From Bacteroidia bacterium (lineage in GTDB: Bacteria > Bacteroidota > Bacteroidia > UKL13-3), in assembly GCA_040403075.1 (NCBI GenBank), contig JBBALJ010000001.1:18731-82730 (forward strand): a stretch of 64,000 nt of DNA, written 5' to 3'. Shown in pieces: positions 14,524 to 55,182 of this stretch; positions within the stretch are counted from its first letter, which is position 1; every line of letters begins with the position of its first letter. The position numbers and the translations under genes were made by a program. The notes under the pieces were generated by a model. The model made no database searches. It was not told the origin of the DNA and saw only the letters and a list, made by a program, of their open reading frames with translations.

Positions 14524-14553
14524 TGATTACATTTTATGGAAAATTTCAATTCG

Positions 14554-15069
14554 TTAATACAATAAAATTGGCACATTCTTAAAATAAAAATCCACTCCAA
14601 TATTAATATTAATAAGTTTTTCATAATTAACTCTTGAATCGGGGTAACCAATATGACTGCTAAGAAAAAAACCAAGCCTACTAGTAAATGGTTTAATTAA
14701 TTTTATATTCATTCCAAACTGGTTAATTTTTTTTCCATCGTCTTTAGGTTGTACCTGCAATAAACTTAATCCAATTTGACTACAAAGATTTTTATTCAAT
14801 ATTCTATTTTTTTGATAACCTATTGAAAAAAAAGAAGAATATTTTCTAGTTTCACCTGGTTCAATAAAAACATCAAGATATACTTTATCATAAAATTTCA
14901 TTCCTAGGTTGATGAATGGAATTGTTGGGTAACCTGCACTAAGACCAATATTTATTCGTTGACGCCAAACTTCAAATTGATTGATTGATGAGGTATCGGC
15001 AGACTGTGCTTTTAACTTAATCGAAATTGAGCAAAGTGCGAAAATAAAACTTAAAAAAAATAATTTCAA
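14554..15069 (-). CDS. Small secreted protein, probable 8-strand-size outer-membrane beta-barrel
   Basis: 171 aa. Signal peptide MKLFFLSFIFALCSISIKLKAQ. Alternating hydrophobic strand-like pattern with aromatic girdle residues, ending ...FKNVPILLY. It sits between the WbpB-like and WbpD-like genes. Confidence 0.5.
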   Translation of the reverse strand: MKLFFLSFIFALCSISIKLKAQSADTSSINQFEVWRQRINIGLSAGYPTIPFINLGMKFYDKVYLDVFIEPGETRKYSSFFSIGYQKNRILNKNLCSQIGLSLLQVQPKDDGKKINQFGMNIKLIKPFTSRLGFFLSSHIGYPDSRVNYEKLININIGVDFYFKNVPILLY

Positions 15070-15084
15070 TTTTGAATTTCTTAA

Positions 15085-16101
15085 TTAATAAATTTCACTA
15101 TCATAAATTCTTTCAATAATCTCAACCACTTTCATTCCTTCTTCAGCAGAGGTTTTAATATCTTCAACTCCATTTAGAACATCAATAACATTTTGAATTA
15201 CATATTGATGATTAGCTGCACTCCCTTTATAATTTCCATAATCATTGGCAGCATTCGTTTCAGATAACATAGGCATAACATAATTTTTGATATCACAATG
15301 CAGCACTTTGTCCATGTACTGACCCCCAACTTTTACAGAACCCTTCTCCCCTATCACAGTTATACTACTTTCTAAATTCTTATTCCAAACACTTGTACTA
15401 TAACTAATTGTTCCAGACCCGCCTTTTACTAAATCAAAATTAATTAAACCAGTATCTTCAAACTCAATTGAATCATTGTGATTATAGTTATAGAATCGAG
15501 TTCGTACATTTTTTATGTCACCAAAAATCCAATACAAAGTATCTACAAAATGACTGAACTGAGTAAACAATGTACCACCATCCAATTGCTTTTTGCCCTT
15601 CCACGAAGTATTTAAATAATAATGATTATCTCTATTCCAAAAACAATTGATTTGAACATGATAAATGGCACCTAACAAATCAGTTTCAACAATCGATTTT
15701 AGCCAAGATGAAGGAGGCGAATAACGATTTTGCATAACGCAAAATACATTTCTATTATTACTTTTTGCTGTATCAATAACCAATTGGCACTCTTGACTAG
15801 TCAAGCCCATTGGTTTTTCAATTACTACATGAATTCCTTGATTCAAAAAAAATGTTGCCTGTTCACAATGCAAATAATTGGGTGTGGCAATACAAACAAC
15901 ATCTATTGAATCTTGATGTTTTACTAAATCATGAATGTCTGAATAAATTGGACAACTATAGGCATTCTTTAAACTCGAATGCAAATCATGATTAATTTCA
16001 ACCATCGCTACTATTTTTGCATCCTCTCTAACTTGAATTAAATCAGCATAGCGTTTACCAATATGTCCTAAGCCAACAATTGCAAATGTAATTTTGCTCA
16101 A
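15085..16101 (-). CDS. wbpB: Gfo/Idh/MocA NAD-dependent oxidoreductase, WbpB-like (UDP-GlcNAcA 3-dehydrogenase type)
   Basis: 338 aa. N-terminal Rossmann FAIVGLGHIGKRY and the EKPM motif (VVIEKPMGLT). Context with the WbpE/WbpD-like genes. Confidence 0.8.
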   Translation of the reverse strand: MSKITFAIVGLGHIGKRYADLIQVREDAKIVAMVEINHDLHSSLKNAYSCPIYSDIHDLVKHQDSIDVVCIATPNYLHCEQATFFLNQGIHVVIEKPMGLTSQECQLVIDTAKSNNRNVFCVMQNRYSPPSSWLKSIVETDLLGAIYHVQINCFWNRDNHYYLNTSWKGKKQLDGGTLFTQFSHFVDTLYWIFGDIKNVRTRFYNYNHNDSIEFEDTGLINFDLVKGGSGTISYSTSVWNKNLESSITVIGEKGSVKVGGQYMDKVLHCDIKNYVMPMLSETNAANDYGNYKGSAANHQYVIQNVIDVLNGVEDIKTSAEEGMKVVEIIERIYDSEIY

Positions 16102-20591: not shown

Positions 20592-21593
20592 TTATCTTAA
20601 TAAGTTCTTTAAACCTCGATTAATAGGTAACTGCCATAATAATTTGCACCAATCGTGATTTCCTTCAATCAACCCTGGTCCCTTTTCTGTAATTACAACA
20701 TCCCATCCTATTGAGCGATTTGAGGTATTATATAACGCGGCCTTTTTAACCAATTCAATTGTTTCATTCCACATTGGCACCTTAAATCCAGTGATTCTTA
20801 CACCTGTGACAGGATGAATTTCCGAAGCCTCTTTTGTAATATCACTATAGACTGCTGCCCTAATTGCAATACCCGATTTTTCATCCAATTCTACAGCCAT
20901 GTTGCCCGCTGCCAAATTATCAACTGGAGAATTCACTGAAATTCGCAACCTACAACCCAAAATTTCAACTTGGTTATCATTTGTCAATTGAGTAAAAATC
21001 CTAACTGTATTTACTGCAGAAGGTGATAATCTGTTAATGTCTGGATGTTGGATGATAAACTCTTCAACCAAATCAAATCCATCATTTTCTATTTCGTTTA
21101 AAAATGTTTTATCAGATATATTTTTAGTTTCTATGATTTTAACCCCTTTACCACACTTACCATCTGCAGTTTTTAAAACTAATTTCCCAGATGGGCTATC
21201 CAACAATTGTTTTAATAATTCAGGATTAGACATTAACTCAACCAAATCTGCGACCTTATGAACAAAAAAAGGATGATATGCTTTGTAAAACTTAGTTTTG
21301 TCATCCAATACATCTCTATTTCCTTTGGGATTCATTCGAAGTTGATATTCGTACATATGTCCTGTGCCAGCCCATTCCAACTTCTGTAATTTTGTTTTCT
21401 CAAAGAATCTAAATTGAAAATATTCTAAAATACTTATGTTATACTTTAAACTGTTAAAGATTATTTTAAACAATAAAGAAATTCTATTATCTCCGCTGAA
21501 ACTTATCAAATAATTAGAAAATTTCATAAAGAGCACTTTATCTAAATTGTTAAAGTAATAGCCCAAATATATTATACGATTTAAATATCTCAT
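20592..21593 (-). CDS. Sugar-transfer-associated ATP-grasp protein (ATPgrasp_ST-like)
   Basis: 333 aa. It lies immediately upstream of the phosphoglycosyltransferase gene (1-nt gap). Features include KLVLKTADGKCGKGV, IEGNHDW and an N-terminal helical region typical of this family as I recall it. Confidence 0.6.
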   Translation of the reverse strand: MRYLNRIIYLGYYFNNLDKVLFMKFSNYLISFSGDNRISLLFKIIFNSLKYNISILEYFQFRFFEKTKLQKLEWAGTGHMYEYQLRMNPKGNRDVLDDKTKFYKAYHPFFVHKVADLVELMSNPELLKQLLDSPSGKLVLKTADGKCGKGVKIIETKNISDKTFLNEIENDGFDLVEEFIIQHPDINRLSPSAVNTVRIFTQLTNDNQVEILGCRLRISVNSPVDNLAAGNMAVELDEKSGIAIRAAVYSDITKEASEIHPVTGVRITGFKVPMWNETIELVKKAALYNTSNRSIGWDVVITEKGPGLIEGNHDWCKLLWQLPINRGLKNLLR

Positions 21594-22717
21594 TTTTCTT
21601 TGCTAATAATATCAATTAAATCAGAAGCTGAAATAAATTCAACCTCTGGCCATTTCATAACTATTTTAGTTAGTAGTATTTTTAAATTGCTCAACCCAAT
21701 TTTTCTATTTTCCTCACTAATAAATCCACTAAAGTTTATTCTATGTGAGCTAATATTAGCGACACGATTCAGATTAAAAGCTATTTCTATTTGATTCATA
21801 GCAAGATTCACAGGATCATAGCTAGTTTTCTCTGATGGCTCAAAAACCACATTTCTAACAATATTGAAAATATTATTTCTTTTGTTAAATTTGGTTGTCG
21901 TAAAACTTTTTTCAAATTTTCCGTTACCCAAATGCACCTTAGCATAAAATGGTTTATCAATGGCCTTTAAACCATATTTAAATAAGTTCGCCTCCAAGAA
22001 AGGAGGAAATTGTTGAGATGGGGGCGTGAAAACAAAAGCTTTTTTATGAAAAACTTTTTCAAATTCTTCTAGTCCGGTTGAAATTACACTATCAAATTCT
22101 GATGTTTCTATAAAATCATTAAAGGAGAATGCGGCTGTGTATATTCTATTACCATTTAATTCAGGCAAAAATGAATATGTTCTATTTTCAAATAATAACT
22201 TTAGGAGTTTGAAATTATTGTTACGTTGATACTTAAATTCCTCTATGTTTACATGTTCTCTGCCGTGAAATTCTGGAGATAATAATTTCATTTTTATACC
22301 CTCTTGCCATAAGTTCCATGTATTTTGATAATAATTAGGGTAAAGTTGTGCAAGTTTTTCAAAAGTTACAGGCAATTGCTCATAAGAATATTCTTCAAAA
22401 TTACTTTTTAAAATCGCTTCATAATTTAAATTACATGGAAGAGCATAACAAGTAAAAATAGGATAATTGCCGAATTTATCCTTTACAGATGTTAATGCTT
22501 CATAAAGCATGGATAAATCTTCAGTAGTTTCTAAACTGTCATACATATCAAATCTAGAATTGATACCAATACCTAATTTCTCAATTTGATTAATTATTTC
22601 TTTAGAACCAATCCTTAAATTTCCATAATCGTCAATTGAAAGAACAATAAGTTTTCTATTTGTTTTCCAACCATTAATATTCTTTAAATTATCAATTATT
22701 TTGGTTTTTATACTCAT
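21590..22717 (-). CDS. CE4/NodB-like polysaccharide deacetylase-fold protein (paralog A)
   Basis: 375 aa. LIVLSIDDYG (Asp-Asp), FHGREHVN (H-x3-H) and SSHRINF. Clear paralog of 32963..34078 along its full length. Confidence 0.5.
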   Translation of the reverse strand: MSIKTKIIDNLKNINGWKTNRKLIVLSIDDYGNLRIGSKEIINQIEKLGIGINSRFDMYDSLETTEDLSMLYEALTSVKDKFGNYPIFTCYALPCNLNYEAILKSNFEEYSYEQLPVTFEKLAQLYPNYYQNTWNLWQEGIKMKLLSPEFHGREHVNIEEFKYQRNNNFKLLKLLFENRTYSFLPELNGNRIYTAAFSFNDFIETSEFDSVISTGLEEFEKVFHKKAFVFTPPSQQFPPFLEANLFKYGLKAIDKPFYAKVHLGNGKFEKSFTTTKFNKRNNIFNIVRNVVFEPSEKTSYDPVNLAMNQIEIAFNLNRVANISSHRINFSGFISEENRKIGLSNLKILLTKIVMKWPEVEFISASDLIDIISKEK

Positions 22718-23913: not shown

Positions 23914-24693
23914 TTACTGTTGAGGAAAATTAAGCCTTATCAAATCATCCTTCACATCTGGATTTGGATAGTTAATTAATACAGCTTTGTAAACCCCTTT
24001 GAATACAAACAAACTTCCAGCAGATGCCCCAATTATGCCAAATTTATTAATCAATTTTCCAATATCATCTATAGAGCCAGCACCACCTATAACAGTTAGT
24101 GGCAAAGTAATTTCTTTTCTAATTTTTTCAACTAAATCAAAGTCAAAACCTTTCATTACTCCATCTTGGTCGATAGAATTAATTACTATTTCACCTGCTC
24201 CCATTTCTTGAAATAATCGTGCCATCTCAAAAGGATTTTTTCCTGTTCCTTTTTTACCATTATGGGTATATATTTCATATCCACCCAACAATTTCTTCTT
24301 AACATCCAAAACCACAACAGCACTCTGAGTGCCAACTCTTTCGGCAATCTTACTAACCAATTCAGGATTTTCTATGGCTGCAGAACTTAATGCAACTTTT
24401 TCAACACCAAGCGAGAAAATTCTTTGTGCTTGCTCTACATTTTTAATCCCTCCACCATAGCATAATGGCATTCTGCATTCAGAAGCTAATTTTTCGATTA
24501 TTTGATAGTCTGGCTCCGTATTATTAACGCTAGCGTCTATATCAAGAACCATTAATTCATCAGATTCTTTCTCATTAAATATCCTTACTGCATTAATAGG
24601 ATCTCCAACATACTTATGGTTCTTAAAATTTACTGTTTTTACCAATCCTTTTTCATGAATCAGTAAACAGGGTATAATTCGAGGTCTTAACAT
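23914..24693 (-). CDS. wbuZ: HisF-like cyclase subunit of acetamidino-sugar synthesis (WbuZ/AglZ-HisF2 type)
   Basis: 259 aa. MLRPRIIPCLLI...GLVKTV.F, CYGGGI, GAGEIVINSIDQDG and IGGAGS are (beta/alpha)8 HisF motifs. Confidence 0.85.
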   Translation of the reverse strand: MLRPRIIPCLLIHEKGLVKTVNFKNHKYVGDPINAVRIFNEKESDELMVLDIDASVNNTEPDYQIIEKLASECRMPLCYGGGIKNVEQAQRIFSLGVEKVALSSAAIENPELVSKIAERVGTQSAVVVLDVKKKLLGGYEIYTHNGKKGTGKNPFEMARLFQEMGAGEIVINSIDQDGVMKGFDFDLVEKIRKEITLPLTVIGGAGSIDDIGKLINKFGIIGASAGSLFVFKGVYKAVLINYPNPDVKDDLIRLNFPQQ

Positions 24694-24694
24694 T

Positions 24695-25309
24695 TTAAAT
24701 TTTTGAAAAATTTTCTAGAAGTTGAATACCAAAACGGTGGCTTTTCTCTGGATGAAATTGAACTCCATACACATTATCATTATTAACGGCACAAGTAAAT
24801 TTGATTCCATATTCAGAAGTAGCAATCGTATCTTGAGCATTATTACATAAAAAATAATATGAATGAAGAAAATAAAATTTCGGACTACCGCTAAAGTCTT
24901 TCAAAATTGAATTTGGTCTTTCAATATGGATATCATTCCAACCCATATGAGGCAAGTGTGTCGCAAAAGTAATTTTAGATTCATCAAAACGCTTTACATC
25001 ACCATCAATCCAACCAAGACCTTTTAATTTACCTTCATCACTTGAGTGGGCAAGCATTTGCATTCCCACACAAATTCCAAGCACAGGTACTTTTCTATTC
25101 AATACCATATCTTCAGCCACTTCTCTCATTCCTGATGTATTGAAAGTATTCATTGCATGATCAAAAGCACCTACACCAGGTAAAATCAATTTAGAAATAC
25201 CTTCAAAATCTTCCGATTCCTTCAAAATTCTAACTCGAATATGTAGCTTTCTATAAATATTTTCGAAAGCTTTGATATTACCCAATCCATAGTCAATTAT
25301 TCCTATCAT
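24695..25309 (-). CDS. wbuY: HisH-like glutamine amidotransferase subunit (WbuY type)
   Basis: 204 aa. IGIIDYGLGNI, LILPGVGAF, GICVGMQML (catalytic Cys) and FHPEKS. Confidence 0.9.
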   Translation of the reverse strand: MIGIIDYGLGNIKAFENIYRKLHIRVRILKESEDFEGISKLILPGVGAFDHAMNTFNTSGMREVAEDMVLNRKVPVLGICVGMQMLAHSSDEGKLKGLGWIDGDVKRFDESKITFATHLPHMGWNDIHIERPNSILKDFSGSPKFYFLHSYYFLCNNAQDTIATSEYGIKFTCAVNNDNVYGVQFHPEKSHRFGIQLLENFSKI

Positions 25310-27670: not shown

Positions 27671-28884
27671 GTTTTATTTCCCTCCTTATAAAGAGTAATA
27701 TACTTTGTTACTTGAGTTTGGAAATTATAGTTTTCAGTCACATTATTAACACAATCTTTACTGTATTTATTTTTTCCAGTTTCAATTACTAATTTAGTTT
27801 TTTCAAAAAGTTCGTTAATGTCATTTGATTCAACAATAAACCCGGTATTCTCTTTAACTAATTCTGGGGAAGCTGTATTATTGAACACAATTACGGGCGT
27901 TCCACATGCCTGGGCTTCCAATGTAACCAATCCAAACGATTCGGCAATTGAAGGATTTACAAATACATCAGCAATAGTGTAAAAATAAACTAATTCTTCT
28001 TCATTTTCCGTTCTCTTTATACCTACAATATTTTTAGGTAACAATTTTATTTGCCTTTCATTTAAACCAATCAAAACAATTTTATAATTTTCTGGAATTA
28101 ACTTAGAAAGTTCAAAAAAAACTGCCAATCCTTTTAAATCACTCCAAATATTAGCAACCCCTAAAATTATTTTTTTATCTTGAAGTTGGTATTTTAATAA
28201 AATGTCACTAAAATTTTTTTCTACTTTTCTAAAAACATCAACATTAATTCCGTTGTGGATGGTTACTATAGATTTGTTTTTAAAAAAAGAATCCTGAGTC
28301 ATCTTCATCATCCAATCGGAAACTGGAACTATTGTTAATTTTTTTAGGTTAGTAAATAATTCTTTCTTTAACCTAAAGTTTCTTTTCGAATTATCTATAA
28401 AAAGTGATTTGGGATAATATTTAGTCAATTCACAATCATAACACTCAGTTTTCCATTTTTTGCAATTCACACGCTCAAAATGACAGCAATGACCTGTAAA
28501 TGGCCAGCAATCATGAAAAGTCCATACAATTGGCTTATTTAACTTTTCTAAATATGTAAATAGAACTTCTAGATTAATGTAATAACCATGAATTTGATGT
28601 AAATGAATAACATCTGGATTTAATCCTTCAATATACTTTATTAATTTGTTCGTTGCACTTTTGGATCCATATCCATGCAAATCGAATATTCTTGTAAGTA
28701 TTAGATGATAAAGTTGTTCAAACCTATTTCCAATTTTAAATACTTTAGATTCGCTTTTTCTGAAATTCCTTCCGAAAGCAATATAACTTTCAAAATTATT
28801 TTTAATAAGTTCCTTTCCTATTCCCTCAGCTATTTTACCTGTACTTCCAGTATTGACAGAAATATCTATTTGTAAAACTCTCAT
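27667..28884 (-). CDS. GT4 glycosyltransferase with Cys-rich insert (tandem paralog 2)
   Basis: 405 aa and collinear with 26447..27670. HDCWPFTGHCCHFERVNCKKWKTECYDCE and ESFGLVTLEAQACGTP. Confidence 0.85.
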   Translation of the reverse strand: MRVLQIDISVNTGSTGKIAEGIGKELIKNNFESYIAFGRNFRKSESKVFKIGNRFEQLYHLILTRIFDLHGYGSKSATNKLIKYIEGLNPDVIHLHQIHGYYINLEVLFTYLEKLNKPIVWTFHDCWPFTGHCCHFERVNCKKWKTECYDCELTKYYPKSLFIDNSKRNFRLKKELFTNLKKLTIVPVSDWMMKMTQDSFFKNKSIVTIHNGINVDVFRKVEKNFSDILLKYQLQDKKIILGVANIWSDLKGLAVFFELSKLIPENYKIVLIGLNERQIKLLPKNIVGIKRTENEEELVYFYTIADVFVNPSIAESFGLVTLEAQACGTPVIVFNNTASPELVKENTGFIVESNDINELFEKTKLVIETGKNKYSKDCVNNVTENYNFQTQVTKYITLYKEGNKT

Positions 28885-29136
28885 ATTTAAATAAATAAAC
28901 TTAAACCTTTCTTTGCCAATTTTTCAATATTAAAACTAATTCTTGGGATATTCAACTTTAATTCTAATACAACAAATCGATTTATTTGTTTGTAAGTTCG
29001 AATTTGTTTTTTTCTAATCAAATTGCAAAATTTAATTTCTAAACAGATTTAGCATTTTGTATGTACTCCCATTGCAATTATCATTAAAAAATCAACTCTT
29101 ACTTTTAACATATAGGCACAATTAATTCTAATCGAT

Positions 29137-30210
29137 TTATTGTAATCCCTTTTCAAATACGAAATATTCAAAATCTTTATAACTTCTTTCTAAGGTATAT
29201 TTTTCTCTGATTTTAAAAGCCTCTGTTTTTATTTTGGTTCTTAATTCTTCATTTTCTATAAGCTCATTTAAGCATTGAACCAATTCCTCAACATTTCCAG
29301 GCTGAAAAAGCAATCCATTTATTTTATGTTCAATTATTTCGCGTGGTCCTGCCACACAATCACTGCTTATACAAGGTATTGGAACTGACATGGCTTCGAT
29401 TAATGCATTAGGGAATCCCTCATAAAAAGAAGGAAGCACAAACACCGATGCTGATGCCAAATGTGATCTAAAATCAAGCAAATGTCCTAAAAAACTAACA
29501 TCCTTTTCAATACACAGGTTTTTGGATTGTTCAATTAAATTATCTAGCTCTAGTCCATCACCTATAATTATTAATTTCCATCCTTTTTTCTCTTTAATTC
29601 TGGAGAATGCTTCTATTAATATTTTATGGCCTTTTTCTCTTGAAAGCCTGCCGATAGAAATAATTTGTTTTTGGGGATTCAATTCCGCTATGTCGATAGG
29701 ATTCAGTATGTTTGGAATAACTTCTATATTTTTTATTCTAAACCTATTACTCAACAAGCTTTTTGCCCTTTCAGTTTGAACAATCAATCCATCAGCCAGA
29801 GGGTATGTTAATTTATTAAAAAAGTTTAGAAATAATCCATACCCTAACTCAGGCCCCATTCTGTTTGTTATGAATACTCTCACCTTTAATAGAAGGGTAG
29901 CTACAACAGTATAAGAGTTATACCAATCCCCAAAAGAAATAACAACTTCAGCTTTAATATCCTTTACTTCTCTTCTGATAAATGGAATTAATTTTAAAGC
30001 GTATATATATTTACTATTTTTTTCTCTATCTACATTGGGCCAAATTATTACTATACTTTTATCTAAAGTAAAAAAAACATCTGTTTTAAATAAACAAATA
30101 ATTACTACCTCATAACCATTCCTTGCAAATTCATTTGCATAATTTGTTAATGCCCTTTCCTGACCACCTCCTGAAAGTCCACCTGAAACAAAGCAAATTT
30201 TTTTAGTCAT
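29137..30210 (-). CDS. GT4 glycosyltransferase
   Basis: 357 aa. KICFVSGGLSGGGQERA at the N-terminus, and SFYEGFPNALIEAMSVPIPCISSD as the E-x7-E region. Confidence 0.85.
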   Translation of the reverse strand: MTKKICFVSGGLSGGGQERALTNYANEFARNGYEVVIICLFKTDVFFTLDKSIVIIWPNVDREKNSKYIYALKLIPFIRREVKDIKAEVVISFGDWYNSYTVVATLLLKVRVFITNRMGPELGYGLFLNFFNKLTYPLADGLIVQTERAKSLLSNRFRIKNIEVIPNILNPIDIAELNPQKQIISIGRLSREKGHKILIEAFSRIKEKKGWKLIIIGDGLELDNLIEQSKNLCIEKDVSFLGHLLDFRSHLASASVFVLPSFYEGFPNALIEAMSVPIPCISSDCVAGPREIIEHKINGLLFQPGNVEELVQCLNELIENEELRTKIKTEAFKIREKYTLERSYKDFEYFVFEKGLQ

Positions 30211-31132
30211 TCTTCAAGTTTATTAGCTCGCCATATTTATAATCGAAATGAATGGGTTTTATTTGATCAAATCCCCCACCGTGGTGTTGGGTAATTTCGC
30301 CAAAATAAATTTTACCATCTACATCGTAAAAATCTATTCTTACATATGGAAATAATTTCCCGATTTCTTCGGCTATTTCAATCATTTTATCCATAGTATA
30401 TGGCTTTTCTATTTCATCCCCCCTCAACTCTTGAGTATTTTTATTTTTATTAGCCCAAGTAAAATATAATGGTTCCCAATTTCTATTATAAATATTTCTT
30501 TTGTTGGCATTTTCTCTATCAACAGAAACATAAATGAATTCAGTTTTCCCATTGATAACGTTTATTTTGTAGTCAAAAGGAATAATACCAGCCTTTGTTA
30601 TTAACAACTTTTCAACGATTATTCGAGGTTTAATATTTTTATATTGCCACTCTCTATCAAACCAATAATAATTATTGCTCATCCACCAACGACAGTCTAG
30701 TCGTAATTTATTCCAATCTACCTTGTTTTTATCTTTAACTATCAAATAACTACCTGAGTCATGATTTGCCTTGATAATAAAAGGAAAGTCAGGCATATTT
30801 TCAGGTTTCACATCGTAATAATTCGTAGTTGTGTATACCAGTGGCACCAAATATTCTTCTCCAATTTTTTCTTTAATGAATTCCCGAATAGCATATTTAT
30901 CAGCTAATTGTGTATGAAATTCAGCCCTATTATGAATTTTCAACCACTGGATTTTTTCGTTTAAAGTTTTTGGTTCGTTTAAATTTAATTTATATCCTTG
31001 TCGTTTAAAAAATAATTCACTCAAGTATTTTTCATCAGATTTGTGGTCGTATTTTAAATACCTACCTACTTTATAAATAATTTTATAAATAATAAATCCT
31101 AATTCGCCTCTATACTTTAAATTGTTAAGCAT
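30203..31132 (-). CDS. TupA-like ATP-grasp amidoligase
   Basis: 309 aa. NLNEPKTLNEKIQWLKIHN, LADKYAIREFIKEKIGEEYLVPL, FIIKANHDSG and FGEITQHHGGGF are hallmarks of the ATPgrasp_TupA family as I recall it. Confidence 0.75.
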   Translation of the reverse strand: MLNNLKYRGELGFIIYKIIYKVGRYLKYDHKSDEKYLSELFFKRQGYKLNLNEPKTLNEKIQWLKIHNRAEFHTQLADKYAIREFIKEKIGEEYLVPLVYTTTNYYDVKPENMPDFPFIIKANHDSGSYLIVKDKNKVDWNKLRLDCRWWMSNNYYWFDREWQYKNIKPRIIVEKLLITKAGIIPFDYKINVINGKTEFIYVSVDRENANKRNIYNRNWEPLYFTWANKNKNTQELRGDEIEKPYTMDKMIEIAEEIGKLFPYVRIDFYDVDGKIYFGEITQHHGGGFDQIKPIHFDYKYGELINLKND

Positions 31133-31811
31133 TTCTATTAATTATTAATTCGTTAAAGTTATGTTGTTTAACCCAGTTTTGACTTTTATTATATGAAATT
31201 ACAAATCTTTCTTTTGCCCAATTAAATAATGGTAAATCAGTAATGCTATCTGAGTATACAATTGTATTTTCAAAATCTAATTTCTCATCCAATATTAACT
31301 TATTCAGCAGTAATACCTTTTGTTCAAACATACAGTCTTTTCCATCTAGAAATCCTGAGGCTTTATTATCCATAATTTTTATTTTACTACTCAAGAGATA
31401 ATTGATTCCAAATTCTTCACAAAACAACTTTAGGTAAAAATCATACCCCCCAGAAATAATCAACACAATATTTTTCTTTTTAATATCTTGTTGAAGTCTT
31501 TCTAAAATGAGGCTGTTGAAATTTGGTTTTATTAAACCTTCATAGTACTTGACAGCCAGCCCATTTAATTGCAATTCACTTACATTTCTTATTTTTAGGA
31601 GGTTTATTTTTTTTGACAAATTTAATTTAGGGTTTATCAAATTAATTATGGCAAAAAATCTAGATTTAATCAAAATTTTTTCTAGTGAGGATATAAAACT
31701 ATTAGGGTTTATGCTATCTGAACAATAGTTAATAAATCTGTCGGCAGTTTGAATTGAAACAATTGTTTCACAAAAATCATAAATTACCAAATTAGGCTTT
31801 GTATTATTCAT
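31125..31811 (-). CDS. HAD-superfamily (subfamily IB-like) phosphatase
   Basis: 228 aa. N-terminal LVIYDFCETI (DxC/DxD-like nucleophile motif), ISGGYD, and YSDSITDLPL (terminal acidic motif). Confidence 0.65.
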   Translation of the reverse strand: MNNTKPNLVIYDFCETIVSIQTADRFINYCSDSINPNSFISSLEKILIKSRFFAIINLINPKLNLSKKINLLKIRNVSELQLNGLAVKYYEGLIKPNFNSLILERLQQDIKKKNIVLIISGGYDFYLKLFCEEFGINYLLSSKIKIMDNKASGFLDGKDCMFEQKVLLLNKLILDEKLDFENTIVYSDSITDLPLFNWAKERFVISYNKSQNWVKQHNFNELIINRNA

Positions 31812-32970
31812 ATATACTTTTCAACGCCTCTAAAATGATAATATTCTCTTCAAACGAACGAGAAGCAATACGCAAAAACTGACCTTCTAAGCCTATTTTA
31901 TCAGAACATTCTCTAACATAAACTCCATACGAGTATAATAATTTAATCATTACTTCTGTGGCATTGGAACCATCTGTCAACTCAACTAATGCGAAATTAG
32001 CCCTTGATGGGTATACTTTAATGTTTGGTATTCTATTTAATTCATTTAGAAACATCAATGTATTCATGATGTATTTTTTACGAACTACATCATACTTTTT
32101 TTGAAAATCAGGTCTAGAATACAATTTAAAAAAATAATCAGTTAAACCAGAAACATTCCATAAATAACCTGTATCTAAAAGTTGTTTTACTTTATTACTA
32201 TCCATTATTCCATATCCAGCCCTAATACCCGCTATACCAAAATCTTTAGCCATGCTTTTCACAATAATTAGGTTTGGATATTCTTTTAACCAATTATAGG
32301 TATCAATCATTGATAAATCAAGATTTTCATAAGCAAAGTGAATAAAGCTTTCATCAAGAATTATATTATTCACAAAACTTAATTCTTTTAATAAACGATT
32401 GATGCTATCTTTATTAATATAATCCCCATTTGGATTATTTGGATTAATAAGAACTATGGTATCCGGTTTCTCTTGTTTTACAAAATCAATATAATTATCA
32501 ATATCTAGGACATAATTGTTTTCCTTTTTTAATTGATAAAAAATAATGTCTTCTTTATTTTTTACATATTCATAATAAGAAGAAAAAGTGGGAATATTCA
32601 CAATTATTTTGCCATTTAAAAAATTGTGAAGGATGGCTTGGATGATTTCTATGGCTCCATTTCCAATAAAAATATTTTCATCAGGAATATTTATATTTTG
32701 GGATAAGTATAATGCTATTTCCTTATTTTGAGGAGGATAGGCTTCGATTATATGATGCAATTTTTTAGTTGAAACCAGTTCTTTTTCAAAAAAATCTATA
32801 AAAACTTGTGTAGCATATGGATTTGATAAAAAACAAGCATCAACTTTTATCCCAGTACCTCCTATTTCTTCCATCAATGAAATGATACTAGGGGAGTGGC
32901 TTCCGCTTTTTGATTTTAGTTCTTTAAATTTATTATAAAAAACTGCTTCTTCTTTATTTAATCTAATCAT
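31804..32970 (-). CDS. Class I/II PLP enzyme, HisC/CobD-like aminotransferase or phospho-amino-acid decarboxylase
   Basis: 388 aa. LINPNNPNG, LDESFIHF and KSMAKDFGIAGIRAGY (PLP lysine context). Confidence 0.8.
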   Translation of the reverse strand: MIRLNKEEAVFYNKFKELKSKSGSHSPSIISLMEEIGGTGIKVDACFLSNPYATQVFIDFFEKELVSTKKLHHIIEAYPPQNKEIALYLSQNINIPDENIFIGNGAIEIIQAILHNFLNGKIIVNIPTFSSYYEYVKNKEDIIFYQLKKENNYVLDIDNYIDFVKQEKPDTIVLINPNNPNGDYINKDSINRLLKELSFVNNIILDESFIHFAYENLDLSMIDTYNWLKEYPNLIIVKSMAKDFGIAGIRAGYGIMDSNKVKQLLDTGYLWNVSGLTDYFFKLYSRPDFQKKYDVVRKKYIMNTLMFLNELNRIPNIKVYPSRANFALVELTDGSNATEVMIKLLYSYGVYVRECSDKIGLEGQFLRIASRSFEENIIILEALKSIYE

Positions 32971-34078
32971 TATTATTTAATTTAATTATTTTTCCAATAT
33001 TATCGGATGTAGTAAACTCAACTTCAGGCCATTTTATTAAAATTCTTTTTATTAGATTTTCAAGTCCTTTTAAATTTATTGTTCTATTATCCTCTAGGAG
33101 TTCTCCAATAAAATTAATACGGTGTGAACTTATTATGGCTGGCTTGTTCCATAAGAAGGCATTATTGATTTCGTGCAGGGTTTTATAATAATCTGTTTTG
33201 TCAATTGATGGTTCAAAACTGCAATTTCGAATTAAATAATATTGATCCAAATTATTTTTTATCCCTAAATGGTGTCTAATTAATTTTCTCTTATTGTTGT
33301 CCGTTTTAGGTAATATTTGATATTTCATACCTTGTAAAAATTCTATACCATTTGAGGACAAAGTATAATTTAGTGTTGAATTCCAAATAAAATTATTAGC
33401 AATGAAAGATTTAGATCTATATCCAAAAAGTTTTTCAAATAATTTTAAACCATCAACAATATTATTTGATAACAATTCATCATTTAATGAGTCAAAAGTT
33501 GCCTGAATACTCTTTGATAAATTTGGAAAAACGTCATTGCTCAAACCCCAAAGATTATTTTCAAACGCTATTTGAAAATGATTGTTAGTTTTAAGTAAAT
33601 CAAGCCACATTTCAATATTTACATGTTCACGACCATGAAACTGTGGATAAAATATTTTTTCTTTAATTCCTTGTTGGTAATACTCAAATACCTTATCATG
33701 GTTTGGATAATGCTTTAAAGTTTCGGTAAATGGTTCAAAATGGTATTCATTGAATTTAGATTCCTTTATTTTTTCAAAATTCGGATTTGCTACCACTGTA
33801 TTTGCCGTTATTACTGGGTGATTTCCATTTTGATCTTTATATTTTAATAAAACTTCAAAAAGCAACTCTAAATCTTTATTCGATTCTAAAGAATCAAATT
33901 TACAATATGCACTTTTTTCAACGGGAATACCTGCATCTTTAAGTCTATTGAATACTGTTAATGATGGCATTCTAATACTTCCCCAATCATCAGATTCAAA
34001 AACCACTATTTTTCTATTGGTATTAAAACCTTTGTAATTAATTAAACTGTTACTTATAAATTGTTTAAACGAATTCAC
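32963..34078 (-). CDS. CE4/NodB-like polysaccharide deacetylase-fold protein (paralog B)
   Basis: 371 aa. IVVFESDDWG, FHGREHVN, SSHRINF and C-terminal KWPEVEF. Same motif order as paralog A. Confidence 0.5.
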   Translation of the reverse strand: MNSFKQFISNSLINYKGFNTNRKIVVFESDDWGSIRMPSLTVFNRLKDAGIPVEKSAYCKFDSLESNKDLELLFEVLLKYKDQNGNHPVITANTVVANPNFEKIKESKFNEYHFEPFTETLKHYPNHDKVFEYYQQGIKEKIFYPQFHGREHVNIEMWLDLLKTNNHFQIAFENNLWGLSNDVFPNLSKSIQATFDSLNDELLSNNIVDGLKLFEKLFGYRSKSFIANNFIWNSTLNYTLSSNGIEFLQGMKYQILPKTDNNKRKLIRHHLGIKNNLDQYYLIRNCSFEPSIDKTDYYKTLHEINNAFLWNKPAIISSHRINFIGELLEDNRTINLKGLENLIKRILIKWPEVEFTTSDNIGKIIKLNNND

Positions 34079-35237
34079 TCCAAACTACTCTTTTAATATA
34101 ATCAGTATAACTAATAATAATACGTACCATTTTATCAGAAACATTTGGCATACTGTAATCATTTATAGGTCTAAATTTGCGTTGTTCTGACTTGCTATCA
34201 AACTCCAATTGCAAAAGGCCTTGCATAATTCTTTCTGTATTCAAACCCACCATCATAACAGCTGTTTCCTCCATAGCTTCTGGTCTTTCATGTGCTTCTC
34301 TAATATTTAAAGCAGGGAAATTAAGTATAGATGATTCTTCAGAAATTGTTCCACTATCAGATAAAACTGCAAACGAATGCATTTGCAAAGCATTGTAATC
34401 GCTAAAACCCATTGGTTTTAAAAATTGCACTTCTGATCTCACTTCAATCGATTTACTTTCAATCATTTTTCGAGTACGAGGGTGCGTGCTCACAATGATT
34501 GGGTAATGGTATTTATCTGCAATGGCATTTAAAGTATTAATTAAACCTAAAAAGTTCTTTTCACTATTTATGTTCTCTTCTCTATGTGATGAAACCACAA
34601 AGTACTTCTTTTCTTTTAGCCCTAATTTTGAAAGTATATCAGAAGCTTCAATTTTTTCTTTATAAAAATTCAAAACCTCAAACATTGGAGAACCTGTTTT
34701 AATAATTCTATCGGCAGGCAAACCTTCCCTTAGTAAATACTCTCTAGCAATATCGCTATAAGTCAAATTAATATCAGCAATATGATCTACTATTTTTCTA
34801 TTTGTTTCCTCAGGCACCCTTTGGTCAAAACACCTATTTCCTGCTTCCATGTGAAAAATGGGTATGTGTCGTTTTTTGGCTGGAATGGCACACAAACATG
34901 AGTTTGTATCTCCCAAAACCATAAATGCATCAGGATTAATTTCACCTAATAATGCATCAATTTTTATTAAAATCTGTCCAACCGTTTCAGTAGCTGTTTT
35001 ACCTGCTGCATTCAGAAAATGATCTGGCTTCCTAATTCCCATATCATCAAAAAATATTTGATTCAATTCATAATCATAATTTTGTCCAGTATGAACTATT
35101 ATATGATCGATTGAAGGAGATTCATCTAATTTGGCCATTACCCTAGAAAGTCTAATTATTTCTGGTCTAGTGCCAACCACAGTCATTACTTTTAGTTTGG
35201 TTACGGGTATTTGGTGATTGGTGATTGGTGTATTCAT
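34065..35237 (-). CDS. fnlC: UDP-N-acetylglucosamine 2-epimerase, non-hydrolysing (FnlC/CapG/WbjD type)
   Basis: 390 aa. MTVVGTRPEIIRLS, HTGQNYD, LVLGDTNS, HMEAGNRCFD and SDSGTISEE. Confidence 0.9.
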   Translation of the reverse strand: MNTPITNHQIPVTKLKVMTVVGTRPEIIRLSRVMAKLDESPSIDHIIVHTGQNYDYELNQIFFDDMGIRKPDHFLNAAGKTATETVGQILIKIDALLGEINPDAFMVLGDTNSCLCAIPAKKRHIPIFHMEAGNRCFDQRVPEETNRKIVDHIADINLTYSDIAREYLLREGLPADRIIKTGSPMFEVLNFYKEKIEASDILSKLGLKEKKYFVVSSHREENINSEKNFLGLINTLNAIADKYHYPIIVSTHPRTRKMIESKSIEVRSEVQFLKPMGFSDYNALQMHSFAVLSDSGTISEESSILNFPALNIREAHERPEAMEETAVMMVGLNTERIMQGLLQLEFDSKSEQRKFRPINDYSMPNVSDKMVRIIISYTDYIKRVVWSEFV

Positions 35238-35373
35238 TGTGTTTTATTTTTTTGTGATTATGGCTTACAGCTTTCAATTAGTGGTTTAAAATCAAATGTA
35301 TTGCTAAAATATTTATTCAATTTTAATACTCTTTTATTAAACTAATTGCCGAAAGCTAGCGGCCGATAATCTA

Positions 35374-36504
35374 TTAAACATTCTCAAAAAAAGTATCTGG
35401 ATCTGCAGGATCGTAAAATTCATTTATCCAAAATATGGTATATAATTCTTCTTCTCCATTGTTTTTAATATTGTGTGTGTACCATATCGGCATATCTACA
35501 TAGGCTGGCTCTTGTCCATCTAAATAAAAATCCAAAACTTCATCAGTCCCAATTTGCCTTAATTGAATTAATGCCTTTCCCTTAATAACAGCAAATCTCT
35601 CAATCTTACGGGTGTGAAAATGATTTCCTCGCGTGATTTGCGGCAGAGTTGTTGAAAATGAAACCTGACCCCCCACATTTAGCCTTATTATTTCAGTAAA
35701 AGCACCTCTTGGATCTTTATGACTTACAAACTTAACAGGGAAATGGGTTTTTAAAGGCATATAGCACCTAAAAGTATTGAACAACAAATAATCTAAACTT
35801 GATTTCAATTCAGGAATAATTCCACTTTTTTGATACTCGTTATAAAAAATACTAATCTTATCTAATAATTCAAGTACAGTGATTTCGTGGTTATGCTTAA
35901 CAAAATAAGTATTGGCAAAACTGCTCTTACTGGTAGCTTCATCAATATGCTTAATAAATTCGGTAACAAGTTCTCCTACATAAATTAAATTGATATTTCC
36001 ATTTGAATCAACTTTTGGTGTTTCACCATGAGATATTTGATGACAAAAAGTGGCCACCACAGAATTGTAATAAGGGTGTCCAAAAGGCCCAAAAACATTT
36101 GGTATGACTAAACCTGTAAATTGAGCATCATTTTTTTTAGCCCAATTAACAAATAATTCTCTTCCTTCCTTTTTGGATTTACCGTAAAGATTGTCTCTTT
36201 CTTCCTGAGTAGATGATGAGAACAACACATGTGCTTTCGAAGAAGTTCTTTCAAGTGATGCAATAAGTTTAGTGACCAAGTCAACATTGGTATCATAAAT
36301 AACATTTGCATCATTATGTCTGTTCATAGCAGCCAAATGAATTATTACATCACAGTTTTCAACAAAAGAATCCATTTTTGAGTCATCATCAAAAAATGAT
36401 TTTTCAAAAGGTATTCTTTCGTACTTATCTGCAAAAAGTCCTAGTGTGTTATAGATATGTTTACCAACAAAACCTGCTTGTCCTGTTATTCCAATTTTTA
36501 TCAT
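35374..36504 (-). CDS. fnlB: CapF/FnlB/WbjC-type bifunctional reductase (SDR domain + C-terminal cupin)
   Basis: 376 aa. N-terminal IGITGQAGFVGKH Rossmann and a C-terminal cupin segment (GNHFHTRKIERFAVIKGKA...). This is the domain pair characteristic of CapF. Confidence 0.85.
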   Translation of the reverse strand: MIKIGITGQAGFVGKHIYNTLGLFADKYERIPFEKSFFDDDSKMDSFVENCDVIIHLAAMNRHNDANVIYDTNVDLVTKLIASLERTSSKAHVLFSSSTQEERDNLYGKSKKEGRELFVNWAKKNDAQFTGLVIPNVFGPFGHPYYNSVVATFCHQISHGETPKVDSNGNINLIYVGELVTEFIKHIDEATSKSSFANTYFVKHNHEITVLELLDKISIFYNEYQKSGIIPELKSSLDYLLFNTFRCYMPLKTHFPVKFVSHKDPRGAFTEIIRLNVGGQVSFSTTLPQITRGNHFHTRKIERFAVIKGKALIQLRQIGTDEVLDFYLDGQEPAYVDMPIWYTHNIKNNGEEELYTIFWINEFYDPADPDTFFENV

Positions 36505-36545
36505 ATGTTTTAAATTATATACCTATCATCATTAGCCAATTGGTT

Positions 36546-36965
36546 TTATAACGCCCAAGTATTTATATCAAATTTAATATTATCAGTAGCTGCTTTTTCA
36601 ATATCAAAATCCGAAAAAACCAACAATTTAGATTCTTTTTCTAATGAAACGATACCATTGGCATATCCAGGAGGTATATGCAAAATTTCACTTTTAGATT
36701 CGAATAATGTCAAAGTTTCTACTTTTAATTGTTTGGATGGATTCTCCCAATTATCAGGCTGAACCAAACCAACAGCGAAACTACCTTTCAAACAATAGAA
36801 CCATTTGGATTCGAATTGATGTCCTTGCCAAGCTCTCTTTGGGTTTTCTTCAGAGTTCTCTATCACATAAAACCTCCTAACCTTATCCATGTCAAAATCA
36901 TTTACATGAAAAAGGCTCCCCCTATTTTCTGTAAAAATCCCACCTATAATGATTGAGTAAGTCAT
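36546..36965 (-). CDS. WxcM/FdtA-like cupin (sugar ketoisomerase-like) protein
   Basis: 139 aa. ENRGSLFHVNDFD, RFYVI, AWQGHQFE and LHIPPGYANG. It lies between the FnlA-like and FnlB-like genes. Confidence 0.65.
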   Translation of the reverse strand: MTYSIIIGGIFTENRGSLFHVNDFDMDKVRRFYVIENSEENPKRAWQGHQFESKWFYCLKGSFAVGLVQPDNWENPSKQLKVETLTLFESKSEILHIPPGYANGIVSLEKESKLLVFSDFDIEKAATDNIKFDINTWAL

Positions 36966-36976
36966 AATAAATTGGC

Positions 36977-38017
36977 TTATTCTGCAAGATGACCAATCGA
37001 CATATCGCCTAAAACTTCTCGTTTGATAAAAGGCAATTTTAAGAGTAATTTTTTCATCCCTTCTACACCTTGCTGGGTGGTATTATGCGAATGATAATCC
37101 TCTACTTTAGAAATATCCTGCTCTCCTTCAGAGAAATATTGGGCATAATTTAAATCCCTATTATCAGCGGGAATTCTGTAAAAATCGCCCATATCTTCCG
37201 CTTTCATCATCTCTTCTCTGGTGCATAAAGTCTCATATAATTTTTCACCATGTCTGGTACCAATAATCTTGATTTCATTATCAACATTACATAATTCTTT
37301 CATGGCTTGTGCAAGGTCTCGAATAGTTCCCGCAGGTGCTTTATTCACAAATAAATCACCTGAATTACCATGTTCAAAAGCAAACAAAACTAGTTCTACG
37401 GCCTCTTCTAATGACATCAGGAAACGGGTCATATTGGGATCAGTTATAGTAAGTGGCTCACCTTTTTTTATCTGCTTTAAAAACAAGGGTATAACAGAAC
37501 CTCTTGAAGCCATAACATTACCATATCGCGTTAAACAAACCGTAGTTTCTGATAAATTTCTGGCAGCAGCAATGGCTACTTTTTCCATAAGGGCTTTCGA
37601 TATTCCCATGGCATTAATGGGATATGCAGCTTTATCAGTGCTTAAGCATATTACTTTCTTTACTTTGTTAGCTGCAGCAGCATCAATTACATTTTGTGTA
37701 CCTAAAACATTTGTTTTAGTTGCTTCTAATGGAAAAAATTCACAAGATGGAACTTGTTTTAAAGCAGCAGCATGAAATACATAATCGACATCACGCATAG
37801 CGCGTTCTATACTTGAATAGTCTCTTACATCACCAATATAATATTTTATCTTATCATTTTTTAATTGGTTGCGCATGTCATCTTGTTTTTTTTCATCACG
37901 TGAAAAAATTCGAATTTCGCTAAAGTAGTCAGTAGGTAAAAAATGATTTAAAACCGCATTGCCAAATGATCCTGTACCTCCAGTTATTAGTAAAGTTTTT
38001 CTAGTAATATTGCTCAT
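36977..38017 (-). CDS. fnlA: UDP-GlcNAc 4,6-dehydratase/5-epimerase (CapE/FnlA/WbjB type)
   Basis: 346 aa. LLITGGTGSFGNAV, IRIFSRDEKKQ, FHAAALKQVPSCEFFP and LSTDKAAYPINAMGISKA. Confidence 0.9.
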   Translation of the reverse strand: MSNITRKTLLITGGTGSFGNAVLNHFLPTDYFSEIRIFSRDEKKQDDMRNQLKNDKIKYYIGDVRDYSSIERAMRDVDYVFHAAALKQVPSCEFFPLEATKTNVLGTQNVIDAAAANKVKKVICLSTDKAAYPINAMGISKALMEKVAIAAARNLSETTVCLTRYGNVMASRGSVIPLFLKQIKKGEPLTITDPNMTRFLMSLEEAVELVLFAFEHGNSGDLFVNKAPAGTIRDLAQAMKELCNVDNEIKIIGTRHGEKLYETLCTREEMMKAEDMGDFYRIPADNRDLNYAQYFSEGEQDISKVEDYHSHNTTQQGVEGMKKLLLKLPFIKREVLGDMSIGHLAE

Positions 38018-38022
38018 ACTTT

Positions 38023-39267
38023 TTATTTAATCAAGTTTAGAATAGATATGTTATTTTCTATAAACAATGGTGTTCCGACAAAAGGTAAAAATAAATTAAC
38101 GCTCATGTAAGGGATACCGTATCTTACTTGCACAATTGCTAATGTCATCAGAGCACCAAACCCCAATAATGTTGTAAAATGAGTACGCTTCATTTTATAA
38201 TAGCTAAAAAGTTGAATCAAAGTTAAACAAGCTGCCACTTGATACAAAAGCAAGAATCTTGAATTAAATGAATGTATATCACTACCTAAATTGGTAATAG
38301 ACAAAACAAAAATTGAAAATAAAAATATGTTGTTTAGCTTTTCGGTATTGATGTATTTTTTATAGTCAAGAAAAATAAGCACAAATAATAGAATATACTT
38401 ACATATCTTTTGGTATTGAAGAAGAATAAATAAGCCAGTTTCCGTTTCCTCTTTAATTAAGTCTTTATAATAATCATCAGAATAGGTTAAAGCCCTCTGT
38501 TGCACAGAACCGCTTAGCGAATCACCATAAGCATTGATATATTGAGAAAGGACACCTTCGATTATAAACGAAGCTATGAGTATGGAATAATAAACCTTTT
38601 TGTTCTTGGGTAAATAATGAAACAGCAATATTAAAGCTATAAAAATAAAGAAGCTAAAATGAATTAGACCTGAGAAAATGCAAATAAATAGGTATTTTCT
38701 CTCTCCCTTAATCAGCAATCCAAACATCCCTAAAATAAATGTCATAAAGGCCACATACCATCTAAAATGATTAATGTCAAATATTGGTATTAAAAGGGCT
38801 ACATAAAACAAATATATTCTGGAATTGATATTTGGAAATTCATTAAAAATATTTATTAAGAATTTAAAAATTAACACGATATAGGTGCTAAAAATTAGAG
38901 AAAAAACAACAAACAAAAAATCTTTGTTATCAGTAAATCTAGATAGAATAAAATATAGAGTGGGTAAAAACAAATCTGCGGCATCATCATTCCCTTCAGT
39001 TTCTTTGACGAAAATTGCCATGATATAGTTTATGAAATCACCAAAGTCTCTTTTATGCATTTGTTGAAACATTTCTATATATGAATTGGCGTCAGCAAAT
39101 TCATCGGGGACAATAAAAGAGTAACCAAAAAGCATCGAAAATAAAATTACGATTAGTCTTGCGCCTTTATTTTCAATATTTGAGTATGCCTTGGATAATC
39201 CAAAAACTGGCCAAAATACAAAGAGAACTAAATTTTCTTTAAAATCGTAATTTTTTTTTAAATTCAA
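38023..39267 (-). CDS. wzy: O-antigen/capsule repeat-unit polymerase (Wzy, EpsG-like)
   Basis: 414 aa with more than 10 hydrophobic segments and no soluble domain. It lies near wzx, separated only by the putative transferase gene 39264..40289. Confidence 0.65.
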   Translation of the reverse strand: MNLKKNYDFKENLVLFVFWPVFGLSKAYSNIENKGARLIVILFSMLFGYSFIVPDEFADANSYIEMFQQMHKRDFGDFINYIMAIFVKETEGNDDAADLFLPTLYFILSRFTDNKDFLFVVFSLIFSTYIVLIFKFLINIFNEFPNINSRIYLFYVALLIPIFDINHFRWYVAFMTFILGMFGLLIKGERKYLFICIFSGLIHFSFFIFIALILLFHYLPKNKKVYYSILIASFIIEGVLSQYINAYGDSLSGSVQQRALTYSDDYYKDLIKEETETGLFILLQYQKICKYILLFVLIFLDYKKYINTEKLNNIFLFSIFVLSITNLGSDIHSFNSRFLLLYQVAACLTLIQLFSYYKMKRTHFTTLLGFGALMTLAIVQVRYGIPYMSVNLFLPFVGTPLFIENNISILNLIK

Positions 39268-55019: not shown

Positions 55020-55182
55020 ATTTTGAATAAATTTATAGGGTGTAGAATCACTAATAATTGATGTAACATGCTGATTATCATCCAACATTGATATATAGCT
55101 TCGCTAGGTGAGTCCCATTGGGCCAAAAATCTATAAATATTTTATATAAAAAAACTTAGCGAAAAATCACTTGGATGGTAAT

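Follow-up and report, generated by a model that had tools for sequence, protein, structure and literature searches.

What do a pyridoxal phosphate (PLP) enzyme, a HAD phosphatase and a TupA-like ATP-grasp protein make together, when their genes overlap within a locus for polysaccharide synthesis? Three such genes lie in the 64,000-nucleotide stretch analysed here (the window: positions 18,731 to 82,730 of contig JBBALJ010000001.1, assembly GCA_040403075.1), which represents one long minus-strand polysaccharide locus. The source genome is a Bacteroidota metagenome-assembled genome (MAG) of 3.6 Mb, in 259 contigs and 87% complete. Here, we compare the trio with the amidation system of Campylobacter jejuni. 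Judging from sequence, the trio probably acts in the cytoplasm to amidate a uronic acid of the locus polysaccharide with an amino alcohol, most likely ethanolamine. Its genes are:

30203-31132, minus strand: stand-alone TupA-like ATP-grasp amidoligase of the Cj1438C type (309 aa; PF14305)
31125-31811, minus strand: HAD-IB phosphatase of the Cj1435 type (228 aa; PF12710, TIGR01488)
31804-32970, minus strand: fold-type-I PLP enzyme, predicted decarboxylase of the Cj1436/6OUX type (388 aa; PF00155)

Each of these open reading frames (ORFs) overlaps the next by 8 bp on the minus strand, which indicates co-translation. A preliminary description had reported three overlapping genes here, quoting motifs from each; the coordinates are exact, the genes do overlap, and all of the motifs are found in the translations. 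It had also likened the products to Cj1436/Cj1437, Cj1435 and the TupA-like ATP-grasp domain of Cj1438 (the C-terminal domain, Cj1438C), a correspondence borne out for all three by direct sequence comparison. In C. jejuni, Cj1436 converts L-phosphoserine to ethanolamine phosphate by decarboxylation, and Cj1437 transaminates dihydroxyacetone phosphate to (S)-serinol phosphate (PMC11800397, PMC12409886). Cj1438C forms an ATP-dependent amide at C6 of glucuronic acid (GlcA), once the GlcA is in the growing chain, and Cj1435 takes the phosphate off after amide formation (PMC11800397, PMC12409886). The C. jejuni ligase is fused to a glycosyltransferase domain (PMC12409886).

The PLP enzyme matches PF00155 (Pfam; E 2.3e-36), and its translation carries NPNNPNG and KSMAKDFGIAGIRAGY. 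Because the C. jejuni species representative in our collection lacks a close copy of Cj1438C, the genes that occupy the corresponding positions in other species of Campylobacter and Helicobacter stood in for Cj1436 and Cj1437. We refer to Cj1436-position enzymes as type A (decarboxylase) and to Cj1437-position enzymes as type B (aminotransferase). For example, locus L082 of a Campylobacter sp. has the C. jejuni gene order: Cj1438C-like (61%), PLP type B, PLP type A, Cj1435-like (60%). The window enzyme is 50% identical to the Cj1436-position gene of L082 and 53% identical to that of a Helicobacter locus (L086, H. equorum), and only 22-26% identical to every Cj1437-position gene. Its best match in the PDB, over the full length, is 6OUX (E 1e-113, 46% identity). 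K242 (the Schiff-base lysine, in SMAKDFG) and the PLP-binding N179 and D206 are invariant in the alignment of type-A enzymes. The enzyme falls below the NCBIfam equivalog cut-offs for both HisC (TIGR01141, 161.6 bits against 276.55) and CobD (TIGR01140, 151.8 bits against 290.55). Sequence comparison with Cj1435-Cj1438 and CobD, suggested earlier as a check, gives C. jejuni-type homology and only a distant relationship to CobD. By these comparisons the enzyme is of the Cj1436 decarboxylase type, not the Cj1437 aminotransferase type, and ethanolamine is therefore favoured over serinol. Among the amines first envisaged, ethanolamine is the most likely, serinol is less so and aminopropanol survives as a minority possibility. 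SerC is present in the genome, above its cut-off, so L-phosphoserine should be available to the PLP enzyme.

The HAD protein matches PF12710 (Pfam; E 1.1e-14) and the HAD-IB model TIGR01488 (56.6 bits against a cut-off of 45). It aligns with Cj1435 over the full length (residues 4-223) at 27% identity (BLASTP, E 5e-23), where the sequences used for Cj1435 and Cj1438C were machine-read from the PDF supplement of PMC11800397 and may contain small errors. DFCET and YSDSITD are present in the translation, and the catalytic residues of HAD motifs I-IV are kept across the family: D12, T16, K165 and D192 in 58/58 members, S120 and D188 in 57/58. Motif I has a cysteine at Asp+2 (C14; D-F-C-x-T) in 51/58 members, including Cj1435, which is experimentally active with this residue. 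The protein is predicted to be a Cj1435-type phosphatase that strips the phosphate from an amide-linked amino-alcohol phosphate. As a separate observation, C14 replaces the general acid/base Asp of HAD motif I, and a second cysteine, C160, is kept in 47/58 family members.

The ATP-grasp protein matches PF14305 (ATPgrasp_TupA) with an E value of 1.9e-49; the score is 168.8 bits (cut-off 25), and the match spans positions 1-240 of the 241-position profile. Its similarity to Cj1438C likewise extends over the full length (query residues 47-301; BLASTP, 29% identity, E 7e-33). NEKIQWLKIHN and FIIKANHDSG occur in the translation. The nucleotide- and Mg-binding residues are intact, and the protein retains every one of the 26 positions with at least 90% conservation across the family, among them K121, E161, E174, K189, R265, D267 and E279. 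An AlphaFold2 model (predicted local distance difference test score, pLDDT, 91.6) was compared with known structures by Foldseek. It matches the carboxylate-amine ligases Ddl, LysX, ArgX and RimK with probability 1.0; the TM-score is only 0.40-0.47 because of a helical N-terminal region specific to the family. No TupA-like structure was found in the PDB. We predict that this protein is a Cj1438C-type ligase, joining a uronic acid carboxylate to the amine of ethanolamine phosphate at the expense of ATP.

How consistently do the three genes travel together? Loci were collected by pattern-based retrieval, at most 80 per scan, and the counts that follow are not an unbiased census. Both HAD and PLP genes stand beside the ligase in 22 of the 80 loci fetched with the ligase as query. 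In a maximum-likelihood tree of 105 TupA-like domains, the window ligase belongs to a clade of 28 stand-alone ligases (Shimodaira-Hasegawa-like approximate likelihood ratio test, SH-aLRT, 100), and every one of the 28 has PLP and HAD neighbours. In two loci of this clade, L012 and L038, PLP and HAD are fused in a single ORF. Conservation of the neighbourhood and the two fusions support the idea that the trio is a functional unit. The clade containing Cj1438C is also supported at 100. Outside these two clades, both partners were seen among the sampled ligases only with a long-branched outlier (L157); the ligase of L044 has a HAD-like neighbour only. A scan with an alignment of type-A PLP enzymes found more than 400 relatives, and among the loci fetched the decarboxylase-type trio occurs in five other Bacteroidota species (L108-L112), with PLP enzymes 74-80% identical to that of the window.

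Two features of these loci are recorded for their own sake. The fusion ORFs, at 3143-5872 of L012 (909 aa) and 4112-5959 of L038 (615 aa), join a Cj1437-type PLP enzyme to a Cj1435-type HAD, and that of L012 has about 300 additional N-terminal residues. In four Helicobacter loci (L083, L085, L086 and L100), at about 9-12 kb, short tandem or inverted partial copies adjoin a full-length Cj1438C-like gene. These copies, about 120-175 aa long and with 36-52% identity, cover the C-terminal half of the Cj1438C-like domain and may be remnants or contingency-type variation.

Which uronic acid could accept the amide? The features of the window that bear on this question, and the genes adjoining the trio, are:

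12797-16101, minus strand: WbpB/WbpD/WbpE-like set (GFO/MocA oxidoreductase, hexapeptide acetyltransferase, DegT aminotransferase; family-level Pfam/NCBIfam matches only)
29137-30210, minus strand: GT4 glycosyltransferase (PF00534, E 5e-43; top NCBIfam matches PglH and PglJ)
32963-34078, minus strand: CE4/ArnD/GH57-like barrel protein (371 aa; no Pfam family), a possible fourth component
34065-35237: FnlC, part of the overlapping gene block
52528-53547, minus strand: TviC-like UDP-GlcNAcA 4-epimerase (top NCBIfam match NF011728, TviC, 321 bits, below the equivalog cut-off)
53754-55088, minus strand: TviB-like UDP-GlcNAc 6-dehydrogenase (NF011729, 580 bits against a cut-off of 592; TIGR03026, 392 bits, above cut-off)

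From the TviB/TviC-like and other genes, the locus is predicted to make at least one N-acetylated uronic acid donor, UDP-GlcNAcA (UDP-N-acetylglucosaminuronic acid) or UDP-GalNAcA (its galacto epimer); the TviC-like enzyme would yield UDP-GalNAcA. A 2,3-diacetamido uronic acid is probably made as well, the WbpB/WbpD/WbpE-like set providing, at the family level, an alternative uronic acid source of the GlcNAc3NAcA type. The earlier proposal of two uronic acids from this locus thus holds at that level. The window also encodes Gmd/Fcl, FnlA/B/C and WbuX/HisH/HisF-like genes, together with a legionaminic-acid-type block that has a complete NeuB/NeuC/CMP-synthetase set. A MatE-like flippase and an EpsG-like polymerase represent parts of the Wzx/Wzy type. 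There are in addition five GT4s, a PglC-like initiating transferase and two ATP-grasp proteins besides the TupA-like one.

The overlapping block exceeds the trio, running through FnlC, the 371-aa ORF, PLP, HAD, ligase and GT4 with overlaps of 8-14 bp. The GT4 gene at 29137-30210 shares 8 bp with the end of the ligase gene, and a GT4 directly follows the ligase in L001-L007 (30-59% identity to that of the window). This GT4 is a candidate for adding the uronic acid or the sugar that follows it. A scan of positions 28500-38500 for sigma-70 promoters and terminators gave no excess over the shuffled expectation and was uninformative.

We propose the following pathway. The PLP enzyme would decarboxylate L-phosphoserine, supplied by SerC, to ethanolamine phosphate. 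At the expense of ATP, the ligase would then activate the carboxylate at C6 of a uronic acid residue, most plausibly GalNAcA made by the TviB/TviC-like enzymes, or else the 2,3-diacetamido uronic acid, and join it in amide linkage to the amine of ethanolamine phosphate. Finally, the Cj1435-type HAD would take off the phosphate, leaving an N-(2-hydroxyethyl) uronamide. On the model of C. jejuni, ligation and dephosphorylation would take place on a sugar already in the chain, lipid-linked, before flipping by Wzx. Within this scheme, which amine is used, which sugar accepts it, and where and in what order the reactions occur are all inferred.

Several other explanations have to be weighed. The top NCBIfam matches are hisC for the PLP enzyme and histidinol phosphatase/SerB for the HAD, all below cut-off, and the PLP gene is the top hisC-like match of the genome, the following matches being aspartate-aminotransferase-like. 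The two genes might then be HisC and histidinol phosphatase, or a cobamide CobD, present in the locus by chance, but we give this reading almost no credence. hisD is absent from the window genome and from 8/8 same-family genomes searched, several of them 97-100% complete (control, 14/14), and the genome has no match to CbiB (PF03186; control found in 7/14). Moreover, the genes are translationally coupled to the ligase and glycosyltransferases, in a neighbourhood kept in 28/28 clade members. The sub-cut-off scores and the absence of hisD and CbiB effectively refute both the HisC/histidinol phosphatase and the CobD readings. Given the absence of hisD from this genome and eight of the same family, the lineage appears to be a histidine auxotroph, and the HisH/HisF-like genes (23914-25309) would therefore be WbuY/WbuZ partners of the WbuX amidotransferase. 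It is also conceivable, though very unlikely, that ethanolamine phosphate serves as a phosphoethanolamine substituent, and that the ATP-grasp enzyme couples some unrelated amine, for instance an amino acid. Many polysaccharide loci do have a decarboxylase-type PLP gene but no TupA-like ligase, and the addition of amino acids is the general prediction for TupA-like enzymes. Within the ligase clade, however, linkage to PLP and HAD is 28/28, and a dedicated Cj1435-type phosphatase is sensible only if the phosphate leaves after ligation. Even a Pedobacter PLP gene that lacks a TupA ligase precedes a HAD-motif protein and another ATP-grasp.

The remaining alternatives keep the module and change its substrates. 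If the PLP enzyme were an L-threonine-phosphate decarboxylase, the product would be a uronic amide of (R)-1-amino-2-propanol. The CobD score does lie near that for HisC (151.8 and 161.6 bits), and the depositors of 6OUX call it a 'threonine phosphate decarboxylase-like enzyme'. Yet the CobD score is well under its equivalog cut-off, and Salmonella enterica CobD (1lc5) is a far more distant match than 6OUX (E 8e-17 and E 1e-113, respectively). Cj1436, the nearest characterised relative by gene order, uses L-phosphoserine, a standard SerC metabolite, while L-threonine phosphate needs a dedicated kinase, and none was seen in the locus. We consider the threonine-phosphate route unlikely, and think the same of a ligase that amidates a carboxyl group other than that of a hexuronic acid, for example C1 of a legionaminic-acid-type nonulosonate or an acidic N-acyl substituent. 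For the latter speak the complete NeuB/NeuC/CMP-synthetase block, the lack of a dehydrogenase within the +/-6 kb flanks of most clade loci, and the fact that the window clade is not sister to Cj1438C. On the other hand, the sole characterised family member amidates C6 of GlcA, TviB/TviC-like genes lie within the locus, and dehydrogenases lie on the same-numbered contig in at least eight clade genomes.

Ethanolamine amidation of a uronic acid remains the reading that we favour, and a number of observations weigh against it. The ligase and phosphatase are only 27-29% identical to the characterised enzymes. The window and Cj1438C clades are not sisters, but are separated by clades that lack the linkage, with a backbone support of 25, and no residues were found that are common to the two amine-phosphate-linked ligase clades yet absent elsewhere. 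Y201, S203, E207 and N210 mark the window clade and are not shared by the Cj1438C clade. Acceptor and amine specificity could therefore differ between the two, and the PLP/HAD-linked ligases may have arisen once or twice. In other bacteria, proteins of this family are also predicted to attach amino acids, and one has a role in fimbrial modification. A nucleoside diphosphate (NDP)-sugar dehydrogenase is present in 25/26 ligase-clade genomes, and in at least eight it lies on the same-numbered contig, 0-40 kb from the trio; this proximity is weak evidence, because such genes are common in polysaccharide loci. The preference for phosphoserine over phosphothreonine follows from family membership rather than from particular residues. 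We take 6OUX to be SMUL_1544, a norcobamide L-phosphoserine decarboxylase, an identity that could not be confirmed. No close match to 6OUX was found in a Sulfurospirillum MAG, its genus or its family, and a scan of named genomes contained no identical copy of the sequence.

The gene preceding the PLP enzyme encodes the 371-aa protein (32963-34078). It has no Pfam or NCBIfam match but belongs to a family of more than 6000 members, in whose alignment D30-D31 and H148-x3-H152 are invariant. Its AlphaFold2 model (pLDDT 94) resembles CE4 polysaccharide deacetylases, ArnD and GH57 barrels (Foldseek, TM-score about 0.45). All 12 members of a Bacteroidota subclade have a homologue no more than 6 kb from the trio, and none was found in the other fetched loci. 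These observations raise the possibility that the protein is a fourth component of the module in Flavobacteriia and Chitinophagia; it may act on the lipid-linked intermediate and be required for amidation. The window also encodes a 34%-identical paralogue (21590-22717), beside the ATPgrasp_ST gene of the locus. The two CE4-like paralogues each adjoin a different ATP-grasp module, one the TupA-like trio and the other an ATPgrasp_ST/PglC-like pair.

Within this 12-member Flavobacteriia/Chitinophagia subclade, type-A and type-B PLP genes are interleaved. The most direct comparison comes from L001, which by its coordinates lies in a genome of the same genus as the window (G151). L001 has the same order (CE4-like, PLP, HAD, ligase, GT4), with identities to the window of 94% for FnlB, 89% for FnlC, 63% for the CE4-like protein, 44% for HAD, 62% for the ligase and 59% for GT4. 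Its PLP gene is of type B, only 25% identical to that of the window. The PLP gene thus appears to be a swappable part, since the same gene order in the same genus carries a serinol-type enzyme. Conversely, the type-A PLP of the window is 79-80% identical to that of L108, from another genus of the same family, and the adjoining HAD is only 46% identical. Across L108-L112, identities to the window are 74-80% for PLP, 33-46% for HAD and 52-64% for the ligase. That the type-A PLP is so much better conserved than its neighbours suggests that this gene is under tighter constraint or has more recently spread horizontally on its own. The ligase is carried by only 5/31 relatives, and such a patchy, mosaic distribution fits a decoration cassette traded between serotypes.

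Loci without the TupA-like ligase show a further arrangement. The PLP gene occurs without this ligase in many loci of Pedobacter and Chitinophagaceae. In Pedobacter steynii (L133, 6001-11685), the gene after a decarboxylase-type PLP gene encodes a 200-aa protein that has the canonical HAD motifs VDIDNTL, FISARS and VCVDDL but no BLAST similarity to the window HAD. Genes for a RimK-like ATP-grasp, a GT4 and an asparagine-synthase-like amidotransferase come next. The arrangement suggests that the three-step amidation logic is repeated here with non-orthologous parts. Taking these points together, we advance a broader and more tentative reading, which we rate at somewhat less than an even chance. 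In Flavobacteriia and Chitinophagia, the CE4/ArnD-like, PLP, HAD, ligase and GT4 genes may form a swappable cassette of four to five genes, in which the CE4-like protein has a role, the PLP gene is a switch, and the logic recurs elsewhere with non-orthologous parts. Exchange of the PLP gene alone, decarboxylase for aminotransferase, may toggle between ethanolamine and serinol amides, even inside one genus. If true, PLP exchange would be a simple and predictable serotype switch.

These results offer a testable prediction for an uncultured Bacteroidota lineage, namely an ethanolamine amide on a GalNAcA-type residue. They also suggest a sequence rule for amine decoration, in which a Cj1436-type PLP enzyme would predict ethanolamine and a Cj1437-type enzyme serinol. 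Amidation chemistry of the C. jejuni kind appears to be widespread, in stand-alone cassette form, among loci of the Wzx/Wzy type, where annotation pipelines tend to name the PLP gene as a HisC-like aminotransferase and the HAD gene as a generic hydrolase. Because an amide takes the place of a carboxylate, a negative charge is removed from the cell surface, which probably influences how phages and the immune system recognise the cell. The literature was searched for uronamides of ethanolamine or serinol in Bacteroidota, and for the assignment of genes in E. coli O antigens, with no usable result.

How, then, does the trio compare with known systems? With C. jejuni NCTC 11168 (HS:2) it shares the three enzyme families, the predicted reaction order, the coupling to a glycosyltransferase and the D-F-C-x-T signature of the HAD. 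The differences lie in architecture and context. The window ligase is a stand-alone protein of 309 aa, whereas Cj1438C is the C-terminal domain of a 776-aa multidomain glycosyltransferase; and the window has the decarboxylase only, without a Cj1437-type aminotransferase. The locus is of the Wzx/Wzy type, in contrast to the ATP-binding cassette (ABC) transporter/Kdo-linker route of the C. jejuni capsule, and the acceptor is probably an N-acetylated uronic acid rather than GlcA. It is well supported by these comparisons that the trio represents a stand-alone, decarboxylase-only form of the known C. jejuni amidation system, set in a Wzx/Wzy-type locus. Serinol-type cassettes, found in Bacteroidota, Lachnospiraceae and others, have the same ligase clade, HAD family and gene order, but their PLP gene is of the Cj1437 type and non-orthologous to that of the window (22-26% identity); serinol attachment is therefore predicted there. 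The PLP-site residues of 6OUX are conserved in the window enzyme, whose context is polysaccharide synthesis in a genome without CbiB. Finally, Proteus WemR and Klebsiella CfmP belong to the same PF14305 family and have the same ATP-grasp core residues, but they lack PLP and HAD partners and are predicted to act in amino-acid addition or fimbrial modification.

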